In this document: positions 36,941 to 59,245 of the stretch, one piece after another
Layout: every line of letters begins with the position of its first letter
Numbering within the stretch: position 1 is the stretch's first letter
From: Escherichia coli
GTDB taxonomy: Bacteria; Pseudomonadota; Gammaproteobacteria; Enterobacterales; Enterobacteriaceae
NCBI RefSeq assembly: GCF_050920415.1
Contig: NZ_CP169309.1
Strand: one strand, 5' to 3'
Length of the DNA: 64,000 bases
Notes under the pieces: generated by a model
Database searches by the model: none
What the model saw: the letters and a program-made list of their open reading frames with translations, nothing else
Told to the model about the DNA's origin: nothing
Made by a program: the position numbers and the translations under genes

Positions 36941-37582
36941 TTGTATCAGGATAAAATTCTTGTCCGCCAGCTCGGTCTTCAGCCTTACGAGCCAATCTCC
37001 CAGGCTATGCATGAATTCACCGATACCCGCGATGAAAGTACCCTTGATGAAATCTGGCTGGTCGAGCACTATCCGGTATTCACCCAAGGGCAGGCAGGAA
37101 AAGCGGAGCACATTTTAATGCCGGGCGATATTCCGGTGATCCAAAGCGATCGCGGTGGGCAGGTGACTTATCACGGGCCGGGGCAACAGGTGATGTATGT
37201 GTTGCTTAACCTGAAACGCCGTAAACTCGGTGTGCGTGAACTGGTGACCTTGCTCGAGCAAACAGTGGTGAATACCCTGGCTGAACTGGGTATAGAAGCA
37301 CATCCTCGGGCTGACGCGCCTGGTGTCTATGTCGGGGAAAAGAAAATTTGCTCACTGGGTTTACGTATTCGACGCGGTTGTTCATTCCACGGTCTGGCAT
37401 TAAACGTCAATATGGATCTTTCACCATTTTTACGTATTAATCCTTGTGGGTATGCCGGAATGGAAATGGCTAAAATATCACAATGGAGACCCGAAGCGAC
37501 GACTAATAATATTGCACCACGTTTACTGGAAAATATTTTAGCGCTACTAAACAATCCTGACTTCGAATATATTACCGCTTAA
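36941..37582 (+). CDS. lipB: Octanoyltransferase LipB
   Basis: 213 aa, TTG start; recognised LipB sequence. Confidence 0.9.
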
Positions 37583-37841
37583 TTGCATACATCAATGGCC
37601 CAATTTACACTGGGTCATTACTCATAATACCTGCTAATGCTTTACATCTCCTTCGCGTTTGTATATTTTCTTTATCACTTGCAGAAATGCGATGCTACGC
37701 CTTGCTCCGTAACTCACCCCATTGATTAACTTATTGAAATAGTTGATTATGGTGAGCAAAAGCGTTCCGTTCCAATTAGACATAAGATTATTGTAATTTT
37801 TTTAAATATTATTTTTCCATGAATAAAATTGGAGTAAGTGC

Positions 37842-38795
37842 GTGGATAGTAATAATCAAATTGAAACCTGTTTAAGCAGAAAGTCGTCAGAAGGTAAACC
37901 ACAAATATTTACAACCTTACGAAATATTGATCTTAACCTTCTGACTATTTTTGAAGCTGTGTATGTGCATAAAGGGATCGTTAATGCAGCGAAAGTGCTT
38001 AATCTGACACCCTCAGCAATCAGTCAGTCTATTCAGAAACTGCGCGTTATATTCCCTGACCCATTGTTTATTCGCAAAGGCCAGGGCGTCACTCCTACTG
38101 CATTTGCAATGCATTTGCATGAGTATATCAGTCAGGGCCTTGAATCCATTCTCGGCGCGCTGGATATCGAAGGAACCTATGATAAGCAACGAACGATAAC
38201 TATCGCGACCACCCCCTCGGTCGGAGCCCTGGTCCTTCCAGTCATCTATCGGGCGATTAAAACTCATTATCCGCAGCTTTTACTGCGCAACCCCCCTATC
38301 AGCGACGCGGAAAGCCAACTCAGTCAGTTTCAAACCGATCTCATCATTGATAACATGTTCTGCACCAATCGTACGGTACAACATCATGTTCTGTTCACCG
38401 ACAATATGGTGTTAATTTGCCGCGAGGGAAATTCGCTACTCTCCTTAGAAGATGACAGAGAGACTATCGAAAACGCTGCACATGTACTCCTGTTACCGGA
38501 AGGGCAAAATTTCAGCGGTTTGCGGCAGAGAGTTCAAGAGATGTTTCCGGACCGACAAATCAGTTTTACCAGCTACAACATTCTCACAATCGCTGCACTG
38601 GTTGCCAACAGTGACATGTTAGCGATTATTCCCAGCCGTTTTTATAATCTGTTTAGCCGTTGCTGGCCGCTGGAAAAGCTGCCTTTTCCGTCCTTAAATG
38701 AGGAGCAAATTGATTTCTCTATCCACTACAACAAATTCAGCCTGCGCGATCCTATCCTGCATGGGGTTATAGATGTTATCCGTAATGCATTTTGA
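37842..38795 (+). CDS. ybeF: LysR-family transcriptional regulator
   Basis: 317 aa; N-terminal LysR HTH; AT-rich gene; HTH region closely matches ybdO in this window. Confidence 0.88.
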   Translation: MDSNNQIETCLSRKSSEGKPQIFTTLRNIDLNLLTIFEAVYVHKGIVNAAKVLNLTPSAISQSIQKLRVIFPDPLFIRKGQGVTPTAFAMHLHEYISQGLESILGALDIEGTYDKQRTITIATTPSVGALVLPVIYRAIKTHYPQLLLRNPPISDAESQLSQFQTDLIIDNMFCTNRTVQHHVLFTDNMVLICREGNSLLSLEDDRETIENAAHVLLLPEGQNFSGLRQRVQEMFPDRQISFTSYNILTIAALVANSDMLAIIPSRFYNLFSRCWPLEKLPFPSLNEEQIDFSIHYNKFSLRDPILHGVIDVIRNAF

Positions 38796-39003
38796 GAAAG
38801 CGTTGTTACAGCCAGTTCACAGCGCAGCACGATAAAATGGCACAATCCAACAACAATTTTACATTTTCGCGACCGCTTTGGCTGCTTTCAAGCGCGTTTC
38901 AATGATATACTGCCAGTCGTTAATTCAAAAATAGTTGATAATTACAACAATCTATTGAATTGAAACGCTTTCCTTCGTAATTCGCAACTGGAACACGCAC
39001 GCT

Positions 39004-39969
39004 ATGAGTAAACCCATTGTGATGGAACGCGGTGTTAAATACCGCGATGCCGATAAGATGGCCCTTATCCCGGTTAAAAACGTGGCAACAGAGCGCGAAG
39101 CCCTGCTGCGCAAGCCGGAATGGATGAAAATCAAGCTTCCAGCGGACTCTACACGTATCCAGGGCATCAAAGCCGCAATGCGCAAAAATGGCCTGCATTC
39201 TGTCTGCGAGGAAGCCTCCTGCCCTAACCTGGCGGAATGCTTCAACCATGGCACAGCAACGTTTATGATCCTCGGCGCTATTTGTACCCGCCGTTGTCCG
39301 TTCTGTGACGTTGCCCACGGTCGCCCGGTAGCTCCAGATGCCAATGAACCAGTGAAACTGGCGCAGACCATTGCCGATATGGCGCTGCGTTATGTGGTTA
39401 TCACCTCCGTTGACCGTGATGACCTGCGCGATGGCGGTGCCCAGCACTTTGCGGATTGCATTACTGCCATTCGGGAAAAAAGCCCGCAAATCAAAATTGA
39501 AACTCTGGTGCCGGATTTCCGCGGTCGTATGGATCGTGCTCTGGATATTCTGACCGCCACACCACCAGATGTGTTCAACCATAACCTGGAAAACGTACCG
39601 CGTATTTACCGTCAGGTACGGCCTGGTGCAGATTACAACTGGTCGCTGAAGCTGCTGGAACGCTTTAAAGAAGCGCATCCGGAAATCCCGACCAAGTCTG
39701 GTCTGATGGTGGGTCTGGGTGAAACCAATGAAGAAATTATTGAGGTAATGCGCGACCTGCGCCGTCATGGTGTGACGATGCTAACGCTGGGGCAATATTT
39801 GCAGCCAAGCCGCCATCACCTGCCGGTTCAACGTTACGTTAGCCCGGATGAGTTCGACGAAATGAAAGCCGAAGCGCTGGCGATGGGCTTTACCCATGCT
39901 GCATGCGGTCCGTTTGTCCGCTCGTCTTACCACGCCGATTTGCAGGCGAAAGGGATGGAAGTTAAGTAA
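39004..39969 (+). CDS. lipA: Lipoyl synthase (radical SAM)
   Basis: 321 aa; CxxxCxxC radical-SAM motif plus second Cys cluster. Confidence 0.95.
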
Positions 39970-39998
39970 TCCTGTAATAATTACTTACATCTGTCTGA

Positions 39999-40030
39999 TA
40001 AAAAACCCGCTGTTTGAAGCGGGTTTTTTG
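39999..40030. terminator. Bidirectional intrinsic terminator between convergent lipA and tatE
   Basis: aaaaaacccgctgtttgaagcgggttttttg, hairpin flanked by A-run and T-run. Confidence 0.75.
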
Positions 40031-40069
40031 TATCGAACAAGATATTGAGGGAGCGTCCTGCTCGCCACG

Positions 40070-40273
40070 TCACTCTTTATGAGAGAGCTTTTCAGCCTGA
40101 AGATCAACGTCTGCGCCTTTTTTCGCCGCAGCATCGTCATCATTCATCGCCTTCTTGAACCCTTTAATGGCCGCTCCAAGGTCTCCGCCCAGCGTACGTA
40201 ACTTCTTAGTGCCAAACAGCAGAACGACCAGCGCCGCAACTACCAGCAGTTTGGTAATACTAATCTCACCCAT
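40070..40273 (-). CDS. tatE: Twin-arginine translocase subunit TatE
   Basis: 67 aa; [26 protein letters not shown] TatA/E-type N-terminus. Confidence 0.93.
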
Positions 40274-40401
40274 AGATACCTTCTTGACATATAACCGGCA
40301 ACAGAACGCGCCTTAAAAACCAGAGAATATTAACGGTCATTCGACGCGCGCACACAATAGCAATCTGTAACAAGGTGAATCAAGCACCGAGTAAAAAAAC
40401 A

Positions 40402-41196
40402 TCATAATAATTGTGGCGGCGCAAAACGACGGTTGTTTAATACTGGAAGTTGCGCGCGCACCTGACGCACTCGTTCAGGCGTCACTTCCGCCATAATAAG
40501 GGCAGGCATTTCTGCCGCCGCCGCAATGGTGACACCAAAGGGATCTATAATCCGACTTTGCCCGATATTTTTGTTCCCGCACTCCCCCGCCGCCACCATA
40601 TAACTGGTAGTATCCAGCGCACGAGCGGCAAGCAACGTTGACCAGTGATGCTCTTTGAGCGGTCCGCGAACCCAGGCCGCGGGAAGTACCAGGATTTCAG
40701 CTCCCTGTAATGCCTGTGCCAGCGCCAGCTCTGGAAAGCGTAAGTCATAACAGGTCATCAGACCAACCTTCATCCCTTCGACCTCCAGTAACGAAGCGAT
40801 TTCGTTACCTGCATCAACATGGCGTGACTCCTGAATGGCAAATGCATCATAGAGATGCAGTTTGGCATAACGGGCGACAATGTTTCCCGCTTGTATGGCC
40901 ACCAGCATATTCCATGCGCGCCCCGGCGTTGAAGGAACATGAATCGTCAGTATTGTCGTCATCATGTTACGTTTACTTTCTCGCCGTAAACGTCCGAGGA
41001 ATTCGCCTTCCAGCAGCTGTGCTGATTTAACCGATAGATCTGCATCATGATCATCACGCGCCAACAATGCTTCCGGCAGGACAAACAGCGAAACGTCGTT
41101 TTCCGCCGCCTGCGCCATCAACGAGGCACAAATCTCAGCGTTCTTTTCCCACACAGATGTAACAGCAAACTGTCCTGCGGCAACCAGCATTGCCAC
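40402..41196 (-). CDS. ybeM: Carbon-nitrogen hydrolase (nitrilase-superfamily amidase), apparently intact
   Basis: Uninterrupted 264-aa ORF with SD aggagg; from memory the K-12 copy is an annotated frameshifted pseudogene. Confidence 0.8.
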
Positions 41197-41285
41197 CTCC
41201 TACTGTCAGAGTCGTAAAATTCGCCAACGGCGATTATTCGGCGTTACACTTATCACTCATACAAATCAAATAGCAGGATTTTGCA

Positions 41286-41669
41286 GTGTTACAACTTCTT
41301 TTAGCAGTTTTTATTGGCGGTGGTACGGGAAGCGTGGCGAGATGGCTGTTAAGTATGCGATTTAACCCGCTGCATCAGGCGATTCCGTTGGGGACGCTGG
41401 CTGCAAACCTGATTGGGGCATTCATCATAGGAATGGGATTCGCCTGGTTTAGCAGGATGACGAACATTGATCCAGTGTGGAAAGTATTAATCACCACCGG
41501 ATTTTGTGGCGGTCTAACAACCTTCTCAACATTTTCGGCAGAAGTGGTGTTTTTGTTACAAGAGGGCCGCTTTGGCTGGGCATTACTGAACGTTTTCGTC
41601 AACCTTCTGGGGTCTTTTGCCATGACCGCACTGGCTTTCTGGCTGTTTTCGGCCTCAACCGCAAACTAA
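41286..41669 (+). CDS. crcB: Fluoride ion channel CrcB/Fluc
   Basis: 127-aa four-TM protein with GxxGG-type motifs. Confidence 0.93.
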
Positions 41670-41673
41670 AGAC

Positions 41674-41706
41674 CAAAAAAAACCCGCTGATTAAGCGGGT
41701 TTTGAA
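41674..41706. terminator. Bidirectional intrinsic terminator between convergent crcB and cspE
   Basis: aaaaaaaacccgctgattaagcgggttttg. Confidence 0.75.
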
Positions 41707-41722
41707 TTCTTGCTGACGTATC

Positions 41723-41932
41723 TTACAGAGCGATTACGTTTGCAGCAGAAGGGCCTTTGGCACCGTTAGTGATTTCGAACTCTACGCGCTGACCTTCAGC
41801 AAGAGTTTTAAAACCATTAGTCTGGATTGCAGAGAAGTGTACGAACACGTCTTTGCTGCCGTCTTCCGGAGTAATGAAACCGAATCCTTTGGACTCATTA
41901 AACCACTTAACGTTACCTTTAATCTTAGACAT
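41723..41932 (-). CDS. cspE: Cold-shock-domain protein CspE
   Basis: 69 aa from [20 protein letters not shown] (RNP1 motif); the track ORF is an upstream in-frame extension. Confidence 0.93.
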
Positions 41933-42106
41933 CAAAATTACCTTTACATGAAAAATAGACACAAATGCTGTGTCGGTTACCAGTACACCAATTGTGGTAC
42001 GCTTTGTCCAGTGCAACTTTACTAAAAAGTGATAAAAGTCGCGTTATTTTTGATGTTAATTATTTTACTCATTGATTTTAAAGAAGTTACTAAAATTTCA
42101 TTTGTC

Positions 42107-42667
42107 TCAAAACTGAAAGCGCATCCAGGCAAAGTACACATTGCCATTGTTATAGGTACCCGGAATGTAGGTCATCTGAAAAGTCACTGGACCATAACCC
42201 ACAGAGGCCAATGGCAGTAGAACCGGGAGAGGGATGTAATTCCAGTTATCGCGTGCCGTTACGCCAGCGGTGAATCCCAGTCCTAAATGAAAATTTTCAT
42301 CCGCCAGCGGTCGCCAGGTACTTTCCCATCCGTATCCGGCAATCGGTTCCCATTTGTTCCACGAGTCCTTAAATGCCATGGCATACAGGCCATGCCAGTT
42401 TCCTTTTTCATCCCAACGCGACTGACCAAAACCGCCACCCCACGGTCGCTCGTTATAGCGATCGGTTTTTTCTTTGTCGTAAGCGAAACGAGCATGCCAG
42501 GTGATGGCAGGAATATATAAATCATAATGTTCAGGCTGTTGCCAGGTTTGTGTAATATTTTCTCCAAACGTTGTCATCCACTCATCTGCGTTAGCTAAAA
42601 CTTTACCAACGCTGATTAACTGAATAAAAACAAAGGAAAATATAGAGACATATTTACTCACGTTCAT
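42107..42667 (-). CDS. pagP: Lipid A palmitoyltransferase PagP (outer-membrane beta-barrel)
   Basis: 186 aa from [25 protein letters not shown] signal peptide. Confidence 0.92.
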
Positions 42668-43152
42668 TTGTGACCATAAAACATTTATCAAAAATCTACT
42701 ATTAGCATAGCAAAACTACAATTAACATAACCTTAATAGACCCAACATGAAGAATAATCTGAATAGCTGTTCTATTTATTTCCGCTTGTTCAAGATAAAT
42801 ATTTCCGCGCATCTATTAAAGATGATGCGTCGTTTTCTGCGATGGGAATAGTCATAAAAGAAAAACCAAGTCTTTTTTGATGACAAAATACAATCAAGAA
42901 AAAATTACTTTATTTTTTAATAAGATACAAAAAACTTCTTAACGAAGAATATATTATATATCGTCAACCTATGCTCATGGTAGATTATTTTTTGAGCGCA
43001 CGCCCGCGGCTAACACCATTGCAATTAACAAATTTGCATCAATCCACCATCAATTTACACACATTATTATGTGATAATTGCCAACCGCTAAATATGCGTT
43101 TTGTTATCTATGTATAAAAACAGCAACTTCAATGTCTTAATGGCAGTTTTTC

Positions 43153-51189: not shown

Positions 51190-52594
<1,405 letters not shown>

Positions 52595-52644
52595 TTATTT
52601 AAGCACTTGATAAATTTGGAAATATTAATTTTCGGAGAACCCGT

Positions 52645-54108
52645 ATGTCTTTAGCAAAAGATAATATATGGAAACTATTGGCCCCACTGGTGGTGATGGG
52701 CGTCATGTTTCTTATCCCTGTCCCCGACGGTATGCCACCGCAGGCATGGCATTACTTCGCTGTGTTTGTGGCAATGATTGTCGGCATGATCCTCGAGCCA
52801 ATTCCGGCAACAGCGATCAGTTTTATTGCGGTTACTATTTGCGTTATTGGCAGTAATTACCTTCTCTTTGATGCCAAAGAATTAGCTGACCCAGCGTTTA
52901 ATGCGCAAAAACAGGCGCTGAAATGGGGTCTGGCTGGTTTTTCCAGCACCACGGTATGGCTGGTATTTGGCGCATTTATTTTTGCATTAGGGTATGAAGT
53001 TTCCGGGTTAGGTCGTCGCATTGCCCTTTTCCTGGTGAAATTCATGGGCAAACGCACGCTGACGTTAGGTTATGCGATAGTCATTATCGACATTCTGCTG
53101 GCACCGTTTACACCGTCCAACACCGCGCGTACCGGGGGTACGGTTTTTCCGGTCATTAAAAACCTGCCGCCGCTGTTTAAATCATTCCCGAACGATCCGT
53201 CCGCGCGTCGTATTGGCGGCTATTTGATGTGGATGATGGTCATTAGTACCAGTCTGAGTTCGTCCATGTTTGTCACCGGTGCGGCACCAAACGTGCTGGG
53301 TCTGGAGTTCGTCAGCAAAATTGCCGGCATCCAGATTAGCTGGTTGCAGTGGTTCCTCTGCTTCCTGCCGGTTGGCGTTATCTTACTTATCATTGCGCCG
53401 TGGCTTTCCTACGTGCTTTACAAACCGGAAATCACACACAGTGAAGAAGTAGCAACCTGGGCGGGTGATGAACTAAAAACCATGGGTGCGCTGACACGCA
53501 GAGAGTGGACGCTGATTGGCCTTGTATTGCTCAGCTTAGGTTTGTGGGTATTTGGCAGTGAAGTCATTAATGCTACTGCGGTAGGTCTGCTGGCAGTTTC
53601 GCTAATGCTGGCCCTGCACGTTGTGCCGTGGAAAGACATTACCCGCTATAACAGCGCATGGAACACGCTGGTCAACCTGGCAACTTTGGTTGTGATGGCT
53701 AATGGCCTGACTCGTTCTGGCTTTATTGACTGGTTCGCCGGTACCATGAGTACGCACCTGGAAGGATTCTCACCAAACGCAACGGTGATTGTACTGGTTC
53801 TGGTGTTCTACTTTGCGCACTACCTGTTTGCCAGCCTGTCTGCGCACACCGCAACCATGCTGCCGGTTATTCTGGCCGTCGGTAAAGGTATTCCGGGCGT
53901 ACCAATGGAACAACTGTGTATCCTGCTGGTGCTGTCTATCGGTATCATGGGCTGTCTGACGCCGTATGCAACCGGTCCTGGGGTGATTATTTACGGCTGC
54001 GGCTATGTGAAATCAAAAGATTACTGGCGACTTGGTGCAATCTTCGGGGTGATTTACATCTCTATGTTGCTGTTGGTTGGCTGGCCGATTCTCGCCATGT
54101 GGAACTAA
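52645..54108 (+). CDS. citT: Citrate:succinate antiporter
   Basis: 487-aa polytopic membrane protein, DASS family. Confidence 0.93.
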   Translation: MSLAKDNIWKLLAPLVVMGVMFLIPVPDGMPPQAWHYFAVFVAMIVGMILEPIPATAISFIAVTICVIGSNYLLFDAKELADPAFNAQKQALKWGLAGFSSTTVWLVFGAFIFALGYEVSGLGRRIALFLVKFMGKRTLTLGYAIVIIDILLAPFTPSNTARTGGTVFPVIKNLPPLFKSFPNDPSARRIGGYLMWMMVISTSLSSSMFVTGAAPNVLGLEFVSKIAGIQISWLQWFLCFLPVGVILLIIAPWLSYVLYKPEITHSEEVATWAGDELKTMGALTRREWTLIGLVLLSLGLWVFGSEVINATAVGLLAVSLMLALHVVPWKDITRYNSAWNTLVNLATLVVMANGLTRSGFIDWFAGTMSTHLEGFSPNATVIVLVLVFYFAHYLFASLSAHTATMLPVILAVGKGIPGVPMEQLCILLVLSIGIMGCLTPYATGPGVIIYGCGYVKSKDYWRLGAIFGVIYISMLLLVGWPILAMWN

Positions 54109-54139
54109 TACGTTCGCCAAACGCTGAATAAATCATCAC

Positions 54140-54176
54140 GCCCGCCAGGTAAGCCCACCTGGCGGGCTTTTTTATG
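54140..54176 (+). terminator. Intrinsic terminator after citT
   Basis: gcccgccaggtaagcccacctggcgggc hairpin followed by ttttttat. Confidence 0.75.
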
Positions 54177-54221
54177 ATTTAATAGATAGTATTCAGTGTA
54201 TGTATGAGTTCCACACCCATT

Positions 54222-55028
54222 ATGAAAGCATTCTGGCGTAACGCCGCGTTGCTCGCGGTTTCTCTGCTTCCCTTCTCTTCTGCCAACGCCGTGGCGTTGC
54301 AGGCAAAACAGTATGGCGATTTTGATCGCTATGTCCTGGCCCTCTCCTGGCAAACCGGATTTTGCCAGAGTCAACACGATCGAAATCGTAACGAACGAGA
54401 TGAATGTCGCCTGCAAACCGAAACGACCAACAAAGCTGATTTTCTGACCGTACATGGTCTATGGCCAGGATTGCCTAAATCGGTTGCTGCCCGTGGTGTT
54501 GATGAACGCCGCTGGATGCGCTTCGGTTGCGCTACTCGCCCAATCCCGAATCTGCCAGAAGCACGCGCCAGCCGGATGTGTTCATCGCCGGAAACTGGGT
54601 TATCGCTGGAAACGGCAGCTAAACTAAATGAAGTCATGCCGGGAGCTGGCGGTCGTTCCTGCCTGGAACGTTACGAATATGCCAAACACGGCGTCTGCTT
54701 TGGTTTTGATCCGGACGCTTACTTCGGCACGATGGTACGTCTGAATCAAGAAATTAAAGAGAGCGAAACCGGAAAATTTCTTGCGGATAACTATGGTAAA
54801 ACAGTGAACCGCCGTGATTTTGATGCCGCCTTTGCCAAAAGCTGGGGAAAAGAGAACGTGAAAGCCGTTAAGCTAACGTGCCAGGGTAACCCTGCGTATT
54901 TGACTGAAATTCAGATCTCGATCAAAGCTGACGCCATCAACGCTCCGCTTTCTGCAAACTCATTCTTGCCACAACCACACCCAGGCAACTGTGGCAAAAC
55001 CTTTGTGATTGATAAAGCAGGTTATTAA
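54222..55028 (+). CDS. rna: Periplasmic ribonuclease I (RNase T2 family)
   Basis: 268 aa from MKAFWRNAALLAVSLLPFSSANA signal peptide; HGLWP active-site motif. Confidence 0.93.
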   Translation: MKAFWRNAALLAVSLLPFSSANAVALQAKQYGDFDRYVLALSWQTGFCQSQHDRNRNERDECRLQTETTNKADFLTVHGLWPGLPKSVAARGVDERRWMRFGCATRPIPNLPEARASRMCSSPETGLSLETAAKLNEVMPGAGGRSCLERYEYAKHGVCFGFDPDAYFGTMVRLNQEIKESETGKFLADNYGKTVNRRDFDAAFAKSWGKENVKAVKLTCQGNPAYLTEIQISIKADAINAPLSANSFLPQPHPGNCGKTFVIDKAGY

Positions 55029-55257
55029 TCCTCTGATTTACAAAAGACGCTAATTCGTCTTCCATAAACTATGACGATTAAGATTTATACATAATGCGCT
55101 GCATTGAGGAATTCCCTGAATGTGACGCAAATCACTTCAAAGAGTGAGCAACAGTCAGTATCATCATGTGAGTTAAACCCTCGCCGCCTGACGGTGAGGG
55201 TTTTCTTTTGGGTATGTTTATCTGCGACACTCGCAGTACCGACGACATGGAGTAAAA

Positions 55258-55668
55258 ATGTCCAGACCAACTATCATCATTAACGACCTGGATGCCGAAC
55301 GCATCGATATTCTGCTGGAGCAACCTGCCTATTCTGGTTTGCCAATCGCCGACGCGTTAAACGCAGAGTTGGATCGCGCCCAAATGTGTTCGCCAGAAGA
55401 GATGCCACACGACGTGGTGACAATGAACAGCCGGGTTAAATTCCGCAATCTTAGCGATGGCGAAGTGCGTGTGCGCACGCTGGTGTATCCGGCAAAAATG
55501 ACCGATAGCAATACTCAGCTTTCCGTTATGGCTCCGGTAGGTGCCGCACTGCTGGGGCTGCGCGTTGGCGATTCCATTCACTGGGAACTTCCGGGCGGCG
55601 TTGCAACCCACCTTGAAGTGCTGGAACTCGAATACCAGCCAGAAGCTGCTGGCGACTACCTGCTTTAA
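55258..55668 (+). CDS. rnk: Regulator of nucleoside diphosphate kinase (GreA/GreB-like fold)
   Basis: 136 aa. Confidence 0.93.
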
Positions 55669-55810
55669 TCCCATCTGCACAAGCGACAACTCGCTTTGCC
55701 CAGAGGATGCACTCGCATCCTCTTTCCGCTCAAATATCAACCAGATTTATCATTTTGCTCTTAAGCACAGCATTCTAATCTGAACTGGTTATTCATCTGC
55801 GGAACCCCAT

Positions 55811-55900
55811 ATGAGCGAAGCTCTCAGTATCACTGCGTTTTATATATTCATAGCAGCTATTATTGTTGCTGCAGTGCTATACCTTGAACAACGCTGGTAG
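55811..55900 (+). CDS. Possible 29-aa hydrophobic mini-protein (speculative)
   Basis: ATG...TAG ORF encoding MSEALSITAFYIFIAAIIVAAVLYLEQRW, one predicted TM helix; no convincing Shine-Dalgarno. Confidence 0.2.
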   Translation: MSEALSITAFYIFIAAIIVAAVLYLEQRW

Positions 55901-56023
55901 TACCTGGTTTTATTTATTTTCCAGATCAATCGCAAATTCAGATCGAATCAGCCTCGCAAATCATAGATTCATAATCAATAATGTGCTGTTATGTATACAT
56001 GCAAAAACAAGGAGAGAATGCTT

Positions 56024-56452
56024 ATGTACAAAACAATCATTATGCCAGTGGATGTATTTGAAATGGAATTGAGCGACAAAGCTGTTCGCCACGCTGAATT
56101 CCTCGCCCAGGATGATGGAGTTATTCATCTACTTCACGTACTACCGGGGTCAGCCAGCCTGAGCCTGCACCGTTTTGCCGCTGATGTACGTCGTTTTGAA
56201 GAGCATCTGCAACATGAAGCAGAAGAACGTTTGCAAACGATGGTCAGCCACTTCACCATCGATCCTTCCCGCATTAAACAACATGTCCGTTTTGGTAGCG
56301 TGCGGGATGAAGTCAATGAGTTGGCAGAAGAACTGGGGGCTGATGTTGTCGTTATCGGTTCGCGCAACCCATCGATTTCGACCCATCTGTTAGGTTCTAA
56401 CGCCTCAAGCGTTATCCGCCACGCTAATCTGCCTGTACTGGTCGTTCGCTAA
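56024..56452 (+). CDS. uspG: Universal stress protein G
   Basis: 142 aa from [11 protein letters not shown]; the track ORF starts 11 codons upstream. Confidence 0.92.
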
Positions 56453-56573
56453 CAGACAAAAATATTTATACCGCCCTGCCCGGAGCCATCCCGGCGGGGC
56501 TTTTTATTGCAATAAAAAAGCCGCCAGGTTTGACCCCGGCGGCTAAGCAATTGCAGGTGAATCTTACTTCTTC

Positions 56574-58139
56574 TTATGCTGTTTTGGTGCGAATCAGGTA
56601 GTCAAAAGCACTCAGAGAGGCTTTGGCACCTTCGCCAGTGGCGATGATGATCTGCTTGTACGGAACCGTCGTACAGTCACCCGCTGCGAACACGCCTTTG
56701 ACGTTGGTTTCGCATTTCGCATCAATGATAATCTCGCCCATGCGGTTACGTTCGACTGCGCCTTCGAGCCAGTTGGTGTTCGGCAGCAGACCAATCTGGA
56801 CAAAAATACCGGCCAGTTTGATGTTGTGAATATCGCCGCTGACACGATCGCGATATTCCAGACCAACAACTTTGCTGCCGTCGCCTTTCACTTCCGTGGT
56901 TTGCGCATTCAGAATAATGTCGACGTTTTTCAGGCTGCGCAGTTTGTCCTGCAGAACCTGGTCGGCTTTCATTTCTGGCGCAAATTCCAGCAGAGTTACG
57001 TGTTCAACGATACCCGCCAGGTCGATTGCCGCTTCCACGCCGGAGTTACCACCGCCGATAACCGCTACGCGTTTGCCTTTAAACAGCGGGCCGTCGCAGT
57101 GCGGGCAGTAGGTCACGCCTTTGGTACGATACTGATCTTCTCCCGGAACATTCATGTTGCGCCATTTTGCACCGGTCGCCACTATAATGCTGCGTGCTTT
57201 CAGTACCGCGCCAGAAGCTGTTTCAATCTGATGCAGGCCACCTTCAACCGCTGCCGGAATCAGTTTGCTGGCGCTCTGGCTGTCGATCACATCAACGTCG
57301 TATTCATCAACATGAACTTTCAGTGCACCTGCCAGTTTTTGGCCTTCGGTCTTCGGTACAGAAATGTAGTTTTCGATATCAACGGTATCGAGGATCTGAC
57401 CACCAAAACGTTCACCCATCAAACCGGTACGGATGCCTTTACGTGCGGAGTAAATTGCTGCCGCTGCACCCGCCGGGCCGGAACCAACGATTAATACGTC
57501 ATAAGCATCACGCTTGTTCAGCTCTTCTGCCGCACGTTTTTCCGCGCCAGTATCAATTTTGGCGACGATTTCGGAAATAGTCATGCGGCCCTGACCAAAC
57601 TCTTTCCCGTTTACGAACACTGCCGGAACGCCCATCACGTTGCGATCGGTGATTTCGTTCTGGAAGGTGCCGCCGTCAATTGCCGTATGCTTGATGCGCG
57701 GGTTCAGTACGCTCATCAGGTTCAGCGCCTGCACCACGTCCGGGCAGTTATGGCAAGAGAGCGAGTAATAGGTTTCGAATTCAAAATCACCGTCAATATG
57801 GCGAATCTGCTCCAGCAAAGACTGCGCTTCTTTTGACGGATGACCACCGGTCCACAACAACGCCAGTACCAGCGAGGTGAACTCGTGGCCCATCGGGGAA
57901 CCTGCAAAACGTGGCCCCTGGTTGGAACCTGGGTTAGTGATCAGGAAAGACGGCTTACGCACCGGCAAGCTGTTATCTTCTTTAAAGGTGACTTTGTCTG
58001 ACAGTTCTGCGATTTCAGCCAACAGTTCCTTGATTTCTGCCGATTTAGCGCTGTCATCCAGCGTGGCAATTAACTCAACAGGCTTGGTCAATTTCTCAAG
58101 GTAAGCCTTGAGTTGAGTTTTCATATTTGTGTCGAGCAT
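56574..58139 (-). CDS. ahpF: Alkyl hydroperoxide reductase subunit F
   Basis: 521 aa from [13 protein letters not shown]; CxxC redox centres (CHNC, CPHC); FAD/NAD GxGxxG motifs. Confidence 0.95.
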
Positions 58140-58309
58140 GTTTATCTCCTGGGCTTTAAACATCATCATGCAAGCGGCCTCTGCGGCTACCTGGATGCAG
58201 CTTGCATCATGGTGCGGGGAAGAAAATCGGGTGCCGCAGCACCCGATTAATTAGGTGAATTTCCGAACTATTTCGCGCCGGAGTTGGTAGCGCGAAAGAC
58301 AAAGGAAAT

Positions 58310-58873
58310 TTAGATTTTACCAACCAGGTCCAGAGACGGAGCCAGAGTTGCTTCACCTTCTTTCCATTTAGCCGGGCAAACTTCACCTGGGTGAGAAGCT
58401 ACGTACTGTGCTGCTTTGATTTTACGCAGCAGGTCAGACGCGTCACGGCCAATGCCTTCAGCGGTAACTTCGATTGCCTGGATGATACCCTGCGGGTCAA
58501 CAACGAAGGTTGCACGGTCAGCCAGACCTTCATCTTCACGCATGTTGTCGAAGTTACGGGTCAGGGCGCCAGTCGGGTCGCCGATCATCGCATATTTGAT
58601 TTTAGCGATAGTTTCAGAGCTGCTGTGCCATGCTTTGTGGGTGAAGTGAGTATCGGTAGATACTGCGTATACATCTACGCCCAGTTTCTGCAGTTCTTCG
58701 TAGTGGTCAGCAACGTCACCCAGTTCGGTCGGGCATACGAAAGTAAAGTCAGCCGGGTAGAAGAAGAAGACGCTCCAGCGGCCTTCGGTATCTTTTTCGG
58801 TGATTTCGATGAATTCGCCGTTTTTGAATGCCTGGTTTTTAAAAGGTTTAATTTTGGTGTTAATCAAGGACAT
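58310..58873 (-). CDS. ahpC: Alkyl hydroperoxide reductase subunit C (peroxiredoxin)
   Basis: 187 aa; peroxidatic FTFVCPTE motif and resolving C-terminal Cys. Confidence 0.96.
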
Positions 58874-59245
58874 CTATACTTCCTCCGTGTTTTCGATGAG
58901 ATGTAAGGTAACCAATTTTTGCCGATTCGGCTAATGCGTTTCCATTATCAAATCGATAAGTTTTACCTTACAACCGTCGTAAGACAACTTTGTGAACTTT
59001 GCACCGCCAGTGGCGATAAAAAGTAAAATGGGCCCCCTTTCCAGGTGACCGTGTAATCTGAACTACCCTTTGGTATCTTCAGCGCCTGCCTGCAGGCTGT
59101 GGTGTTGCCCTTACAAATGCAACAACGACATGGATTACAACACCCTCATAAACAAAGGGCAATCACCTGATCTAAGCTCTTACCTATGACAGTGATAGGT
59201 TATGCCTTTTACTCCATTTTTGCACTGACTGAAAAGGACAAATTA

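Follow-up and report, generated by a model that had tools for sequence, protein, structure and literature searches.

Enzymes of the nitrilase superfamily work through a thioester intermediate on a cysteine, with one glutamate acting as the base and a lysine and a second glutamate in support. Within this superfamily we take yeast Nit2 to be the orthologue of Nit1. Bacterial homologues, among them YbeM of Escherichia coli, were reportedly assayed by Peracchi and colleagues in 2017, who are said to have identified YafV as an omega-amidase. Enzymes of the Nit1 type convert deaminated glutathione to 2-oxoglutarate and Cys-Gly, are found in many bacteria and are conserved from bacteria to animals (PMC7041631), and the loss of Nit1 leads to accumulation of the metabolite with no evident harm (PMC7041631; PMC9913352). 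In a table of a paper that cites Peracchi 2017, YafV is labelled as a 2-oxoglutaramate amidase. The ybeM gene, its family and the K-12 pseudogene are all already known; the K-12 gene has been used as a neutral pseudogene insertion site (PMC4788846), and in UTI89 the over-expression of out-of-frame sub-fragments of ybeM results in filamentation while that of the full ORF does not (PMC6206680).

Herein we analyze the ybeM locus within a stretch of 64,000 nucleotides of E. coli DNA (the window). We propose that it is very probably the intact chromosomal ybeM of a non-K-12 E. coli, encoding a 262-aa cytoplasmic thiol amidase of the nitrilase superfamily that would be the bacterial counterpart of eukaryotic Nit1.

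The ybeM Locus and Its Start Codon

An uninterrupted open reading frame extends over 40402-41196 on the minus strand and has 264 codons when counted from a GTG, as in the ORF listing. The main features of the locus are as follows.

40402-41190, minus strand: ybeM coding sequence, 262 codons plus the TGA stop (40402-40404), predicted to encode a deaminated glutathione amidase (carbon-nitrogen hydrolase superfamily)
41194-41196, minus strand: in-frame GTG, two codons 5' of the ATG, which gives the maximal ORF of 264 aa and is probably not the start used
41196-41201, minus strand: Shine-Dalgarno AGGAGG, read from the sequence, 5 nt (TGGCA) before the ATG at 41190

An earlier note on this DNA, which did not give the strand, had described an intact ORF of 264 aa with a strong Shine-Dalgarno. 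The frame is indeed open throughout and the AGGAGG motif is present, but its final G is also the first base of the GTG, and hence it cannot serve that codon. Its position 5 nt before the ATG at 41190 means that it serves the ATG instead, which gives a product of 262 rather than 264 aa. The ATG is also the start of an identical 789-nt coding sequence called by PGAP in the near-identical genome NZ_CP169399.1 (WP_001354846.1), which carries the same product name in RefSeq. In addition, every complete orthologue retrieved, spanning more than 20 further enterobacterial species, is 262 aa in length with the N-terminus M[LFI]VAAGQF or a close variant, and the NCBIfam profile NF033621 starts at the position of the ATG-encoded residue. 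On these grounds the ATG at 41190 is the likely start.

The gene order around ybeM, pagP-cspE-crcB-ybeM-tatE-lipA, is conserved. The gene lies at its expected position in crcB-ybeM-tatE-lipA, is colinear with its orthologues over 262 aa, and has the same neighbors in K-12, O157, N96, WL297, and MFDS1022581. The last of these, an E. coli from animal-source food in Korea, is the closest relative of the window. A 24-kb query is 100% identical to it, with the next genomes at 99.3-98.6%, and the whole 64 kb differs from its chromosome (NZ_CP169399.1, 3518661-3582660) by only five SNPs.

14914, 15540, 23432, 47102, and 49721: window positions of the five differences from MFDS1022581

The window is therefore from the MFDS1022581 lineage, though it is not byte-identical to NZ_CP169399.1, and the non-K-12 origin that had been proposed from the intact gene is borne out. 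In the NZ_CP169399.1 annotation corresponding to 17555-43301 and 52222-59102, the consecutive accessions WP_001354842 to WP_001354847 are those of citR, ahpF, rna, pagP, ybeM, and djlC, which suggests that a single earlier genome of this lineage was the source from which the rare alleles first entered RefSeq as a group.

Active Site and Fold

Alignment of the predicted protein with the NitFhit protein of Caenorhabditis elegans (1EMS) pairs E40, K110, E121, and C147 (262-aa numbering) with E54, K127, E143, and C169, respectively, and the count along the NitFhit sequence agrees with what we take to be the numbering of the 1EMS triad. The four codons are located as follows.

41071-41073, minus strand: codon 40, GAA, catalytic Glu (general base), aligned with NitFhit E54
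40861-40863, minus strand: codon 110, AAA, catalytic Lys, aligned with NitFhit K127
40828-40830, minus strand: codon 121, GAG, second active-site Glu of the E-K-E-C tetrad, aligned with NitFhit E143
40750-40752, minus strand: codon 147, TGT, catalytic Cys nucleophile, aligned with NitFhit C169

None of the four varies among 27 species orthologues or among 100 cluster representatives. The Glu-Lys-Cys triad, whose presence the earlier note had proposed as a check on its reading, is therefore complete in this copy, including the catalytic Cys, and it is accompanied by the second Glu.

The nearest solved relatives by sequence are NitFhit 1EMS (1.1e-26), Nit2 from Kluyveromyces lactis (7ELF), and yeast Nit2 (4H5U and 4HGD), with E-values of 1e-26 to 1e-25. 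An AlphaFold2 model built from 43 orthologues has a pLDDT of 83 and a pTM of 0.85. The best matches to this model in the PDB using Foldseek are again the yeast and K. lactis Nit2 structures (TM 0.81-0.84, E ∼2e-21), including 4HGD with its peptide-like ligand, and the top matches are all nitrilase-superfamily structures (TM 0.76-0.84), such that the model has the alpha-beta-beta-alpha sandwich fold of these enzymes.

The K-12 Deletion and Its Distribution

In MG1655 (NC_000913.3) ybeM (b4581) is annotated as a pseudogene of 788 nt (658031-658818), and PGAP marks the K-12 copy as "frameshifted." Alignment shows that a single G is missing, with GGACGTTTAC in the window, O157, and MFDS1022581 and GGAC-TTTAC in K-12. 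The statement in the earlier note that the K-12 copy is a frameshifted pseudogene is thus correct, and the alignment that it had called for places the frameshift at the following codon.

40990-40992, minus strand: codon 67, CGT (Arg), site of the K-12 deletion; its middle base, the G at 40991 (C on the plus strand), is present in the window

The window accordingly does not have the K-12-type pseudogene allele, in which loss of the codon 67 G turns GGACGTTTAC into GGACTTTAC. The K-12 reading frame is open for only 75 aa and ends before Lys110 and Cys147. Restoring the one G in K-12 gives a clean ORF of 262 aa with no other damage to the frame, and hence the lesion is single and probably recent.

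To what extent this deletion is found beyond K-12 can be seen from exact matches to short sequences. Of 5,423 complete E. coli genomes, at least 860 (at least 16%) contain the K-12 60-mer that spans the deletion, and the corresponding intact 61-mer is present in at least 3,625 of 5,424. The remaining ∼940 have SNPs in the test stretch and belong to neither count. Among the 860 deletion carriers are many isolates of human, dog, chicken, cattle, and water origin, with genome sizes of 4.7-5.0 Mb. One of them, the chicken isolate ECCHD184, has a ybeM annotated as "frameshifted" together with a lipA allele that differs from that of K-12. As the deletion occurs in many natural isolates, it is a natural polymorphism that is neither confined to K-12 nor a laboratory lesion. 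Moreover, with both states so common, an intact ybeM barely discriminates between lineages.

Two further observations concern the distribution of the gene. Clusters of E. coli proteins of 205-215 aa, with 537, 945, and 343 members, correspond to the C-terminal 78-81% of YbeM with 97-98% identity, and they probably represent genes called 3' of the frameshift in K-12-type alleles. In a search with the ybeM region, two of the 5,436 matches were on records labelled as plasmids, and some genomes had two copies.

A Mosaic Allele

The neighborhood of ybeM in the window is nearly identical to that of N96 and WL297, and codons 1-79 of the gene are identical to theirs. The remainder is not. Over a 995-bp region covering ybeM no other complete E. 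coli genome exceeds 96.5% identity, and over 681 bp in the 3' part of the gene none of the others among 5,423 complete genomes exceeds 95.7%. A second region of this kind is located nearby.

40386-40951, minus strand: divergent recombinant tract of 566 bp, which takes in ybeM codons 80-262 and 16 nt beyond the stop and has 32 differences from the nearest relatives
37357-38894: second divergent tract, comprising the 3' end of lipB, the lipB-ybeF spacer, ybeF, and the ybeF-lipA spacer, 59 differences from N96 and WL297

Over codons 80-262 the window is 5.6-6.5% diverged from K-12, O157, N96, and WL297, whereas these four are at most 1.4% apart from each other. The corresponding divergence is 7.4% from Escherichia sp. 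MOD1-EC7003 and 13-15% from E. whittamii and Escherichia sp. E1V33. The second tract, in which ybeF encodes a LysR-type regulator, reaches no more than 97.1% identity with any other of the 5,423 complete E. coli genomes. The DNA on either side of it is nearly identical. The exact YbeM protein of the window is indexed in at least 193 blocks of public assemblies, and GCA_015290205.1 is identical to the window at the DNA level across all of the segments tested, and hence the mosaic allele is not an assembly artefact. This bears on the proposal in the earlier note that the window retains the ancestral functional allele. The intact state is ancestral, as seen from the 262-aa orthologues, but the sequence is not, as the 3' two-thirds of the gene are a divergent recombinant tract.

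The donor was sought using a degenerate-codon pattern over a 14-residue motif in GTDB species genomes. This gave 27 loci, of which only three were from Escherichia other than E. coli (sp. MOD1-EC7003, E. whittamii, and sp. E1V33). These were rejected as the donor since, with 93.5, 88.7, and 87.1% identity to the tract, respectively, they are farther from it than is E. coli, and no donor of the 40386-40951 tract was found among the retrieved genomes. None of the loci came from E. albertii, E. fergusonii, E. marmotae, or E. ruysiae; at the protein level, E. fergusonii shares only 82% identity with YbeM. A single contiguous import over 37.3-41.0 kb was also rejected because the lipA-tatE region in between has four differences in ∼1.5 kb.

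The simplest reading of these sequence comparisons would be that recombination brought in one or two short segments from a donor whose distance from E. coli is roughly that of MOD1-EC7003, with the 37357-38894 tract probably being part of the same recombination history as that in ybeM. A more far-reaching version, which we regard as unlikely, is that both tracts may have been imported from an Escherichia lineage that is undescribed or not completely sequenced, about as distant from E. coli as the nearest cryptic-clade-like genome among those retrieved, and that the imported amidase segment with Ser133 and Ser196 might have an altered activity or specificity. N96 has a divergent patch of its own upstream of pagP, aligned to 42750-43000, with 27 differences in 250 bp from the window and WL297, and this is another short recombination tract in the neighborhood.

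Substitutions in the Imported Segment

Two of the residues brought in by the divergent tract are at otherwise highly conserved positions.

40792-40794, minus strand: codon 133, TCG (Ser; P133S); Pro in all 27 species orthologues and, among the 100 cluster representatives, Pro in 94 and Ser in 2
40603-40605, minus strand: codon 196, AGT (Ser; C196S); Cys in all 27 species orthologues and, among the 100 cluster representatives, Cys in 91 and Ser in 1

The most probable of the alternatives is that the ORF is intact while the enzyme is impaired or altered in specificity, the imported 3' tract having placed Ser at the near-invariant Pro133 and Cys196. Apart from the conservation of both positions, the Pro at 133 extends to NitFhit, yeast Nit2, and K. 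lactis Nit2, and the gene is dispensable, as shown by the frameshifted copies described above. However, neither residue belongs to the catalytic tetrad. In the AlphaFold2 model residue 133 is in or adjoining a low-confidence loop (118-124, pLDDT <50) just before strand 135-137, and residue 196 is at a strand edge, at the start of core strand 197-202. Ser is also found at each position in a few other orthologues, residues besides Ser are occasionally seen at both among the 100 representatives, and in K. lactis Nit2 the residue aligned with 196 is Ser. Moreover, the tract differs from that of N96 by 28 synonymous and four non-synonymous changes (dS 0.24, dN 0.010), and the resulting dN/dS of 0.04 indicates that strong purifying selection acted over most of the divergence of the tract, while the allele persists unchanged in the public assemblies that contain it. 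On balance we consider an impaired or altered enzyme to be decidedly unlikely.

Assignment to the Deaminated Glutathione Amidase Family

The earlier note had called YbeM a carbon-nitrogen hydrolase, and both profile searches agree. The protein matches the Pfam family CN_hydrolase (PF00795) with 132 bits against a cutoff of 23.2 over profile positions 2-255 of 256 (E = 3.2e-38), and it matches NCBIfam NF033621, "deaminated glutathione amidase," with 446.8 bits against a cutoff of 355 over positions 2-260 of 260. Every other NCBIfam model is far under its own cutoff, including that for the Yersinia-type deaminated glutathione amidase (NF043013, 79.6 bits against a cutoff of 500).

Members of this superfamily are hard to assign from sequence, and YbeM also matches the omega-amidases mouse Nit2 and yeast Nit3 well in both sequence and fold. 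It is very improbable, however, that YbeM is an omega-amidase of the Nit2/YafV type with 2-oxoglutaramate as its substrate, or some other carbon-nitrogen hydrolase, since it scores only 63.3 bits against a cutoff of 249 with the YafV-type omega-amidase model (NF007757) while it exceeds the cutoff of NF033621, and since the top sequence and fold matches, NitFhit and yeast Nit2, are of the Nit1 branch. That there is no gene here, the frame being a chance ORF or a sequencing artefact, has practically no probability: several spurious overlapping ORFs in other frames are all that speaks for it, and it is refuted by the homology, which settles that the ORF is a real gene (PF00795 and NF033621), by the conservation of the orthologue across the Enterobacteriaceae, by the identical sequence in independent assemblies, and by the odds of ∼3e-6 for 264 consecutive sense codons by chance.

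Proposed Reaction of YbeM

We propose that YbeM, including the allele in the window, would act on deaminated glutathione, N-(4-oxoglutaryl)-Cys-Gly, which transaminases form as a by-product when glutathione is their substrate. For the bacterial enzymes this activity is suggested by the name of the family and by a review. By analogy with the chemistry of the superfamily, Cys147, activated by Glu40 and assisted by Lys110 and Glu121, would attack the amide carbon of deaminated glutathione. Cys-Gly would leave with the formation of a thioester acyl-enzyme, and water would then hydrolyze this to release 2-oxoglutarate. YbeM may therefore have a dispensable metabolite-salvage function, and such dispensability would be the reason that a one-base deletion is tolerated in K-12 and in a sizeable part of the species.

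The Upstream Spacer

41202-41285, no strand assigned: spacer between crcB and ybeM, which are divergently oriented, presumably containing the ybeM promoter; position taken from the gene order

A simple sigma-70 and terminator scan gave no promoter in the crcB-ybeM spacer, with overall counts that were not above those in shuffled sequence, and neither a fluoride riboswitch nor any other Rfam element was found there at E ≤ 0.01. The only Rfam match in 39900-42300 is that of the cspA thermoregulator model over cspE. This match (RF01766, 123.8 bits compared to a gathering score of 78) covers cspE and its leader on the minus strand (41675-42088), and thus represents a paralogous cold-shock gene and not cspA itself. 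Directly upstream of the ybeM Shine-Dalgarno, the window has a 3-bp insertion (AGT on the minus strand, 41202-41204) relative to K-12 and O157; the three extra bases are also present in N96 and WL297, with a mismatch at 41202. Binding peaks of NsrR between crcB and ybeM have been reported by ChIP in both CFT073 and K-12, and ybeM was at 0.30-fold in a CFT073 mutant background exposed to NO (PMC5320621).

Implications

The analysis confirms K-12 as a natural knockout of a predicted metabolite-salvage enzyme, one still present in most E. coli. The point has a bearing where K-12 serves as a model for glutathione damage metabolism, and also where ybeM serves as a "neutral" insertion site in non-K-12 strains, whose gene is intact. 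The mosaic ybeM also illustrates, on a small scale, how a short tract from a divergent donor can recombine into a core gene. The importance is otherwise slight and is mainly one of annotation hygiene, the rare and partly imported allele being the only unusual point.

Comparison With Known Systems

The closest enzymes with solved structures are those of the eukaryotic Nit1 branch, NitFhit (1EMS) and the Nit2 proteins of Saccharomyces cerevisiae (4H5U and 4HGD) and K. lactis (7ELF), which have the same fold and the same E-K-E-C site as YbeM at 27-32% sequence identity. The bacterial enzyme differs from them in that it is shorter, lacks several loop insertions, is not fused to Fhit and has no solved structure of its own, and the window allele has Ser where they conserve the Pro at 133. 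The omega-amidases, represented by E. coli YafV, mammalian Nit2, and yeast Nit3, share the superfamily branch and fold with YbeM but they belong to another NCBIfam family, and their substrate is 2-oxoglutaramate and not deaminated glutathione.

Within E. coli, ybeM of K-12 MG1655 (b4581) is at the orthologous locus with the same flanks, and its codons 1-79 differ by ∼2% from those of the window, but without the G of codon 67 its product is truncated to 75 aa and has neither Lys110 nor Cys147. The proteins of O157:H7 (WP_000959109.1) and N96 (WP_001305561.1), by comparison, agree with that of the window in locus, in length (262 aa), in catalytic residues, and in NCBIfam family, with a protein identity of 98.1-98.5%. 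The window protein is distinguished from them by only four to five residues, I99, S133, S196, and A226, together with H124 in the case of O157.
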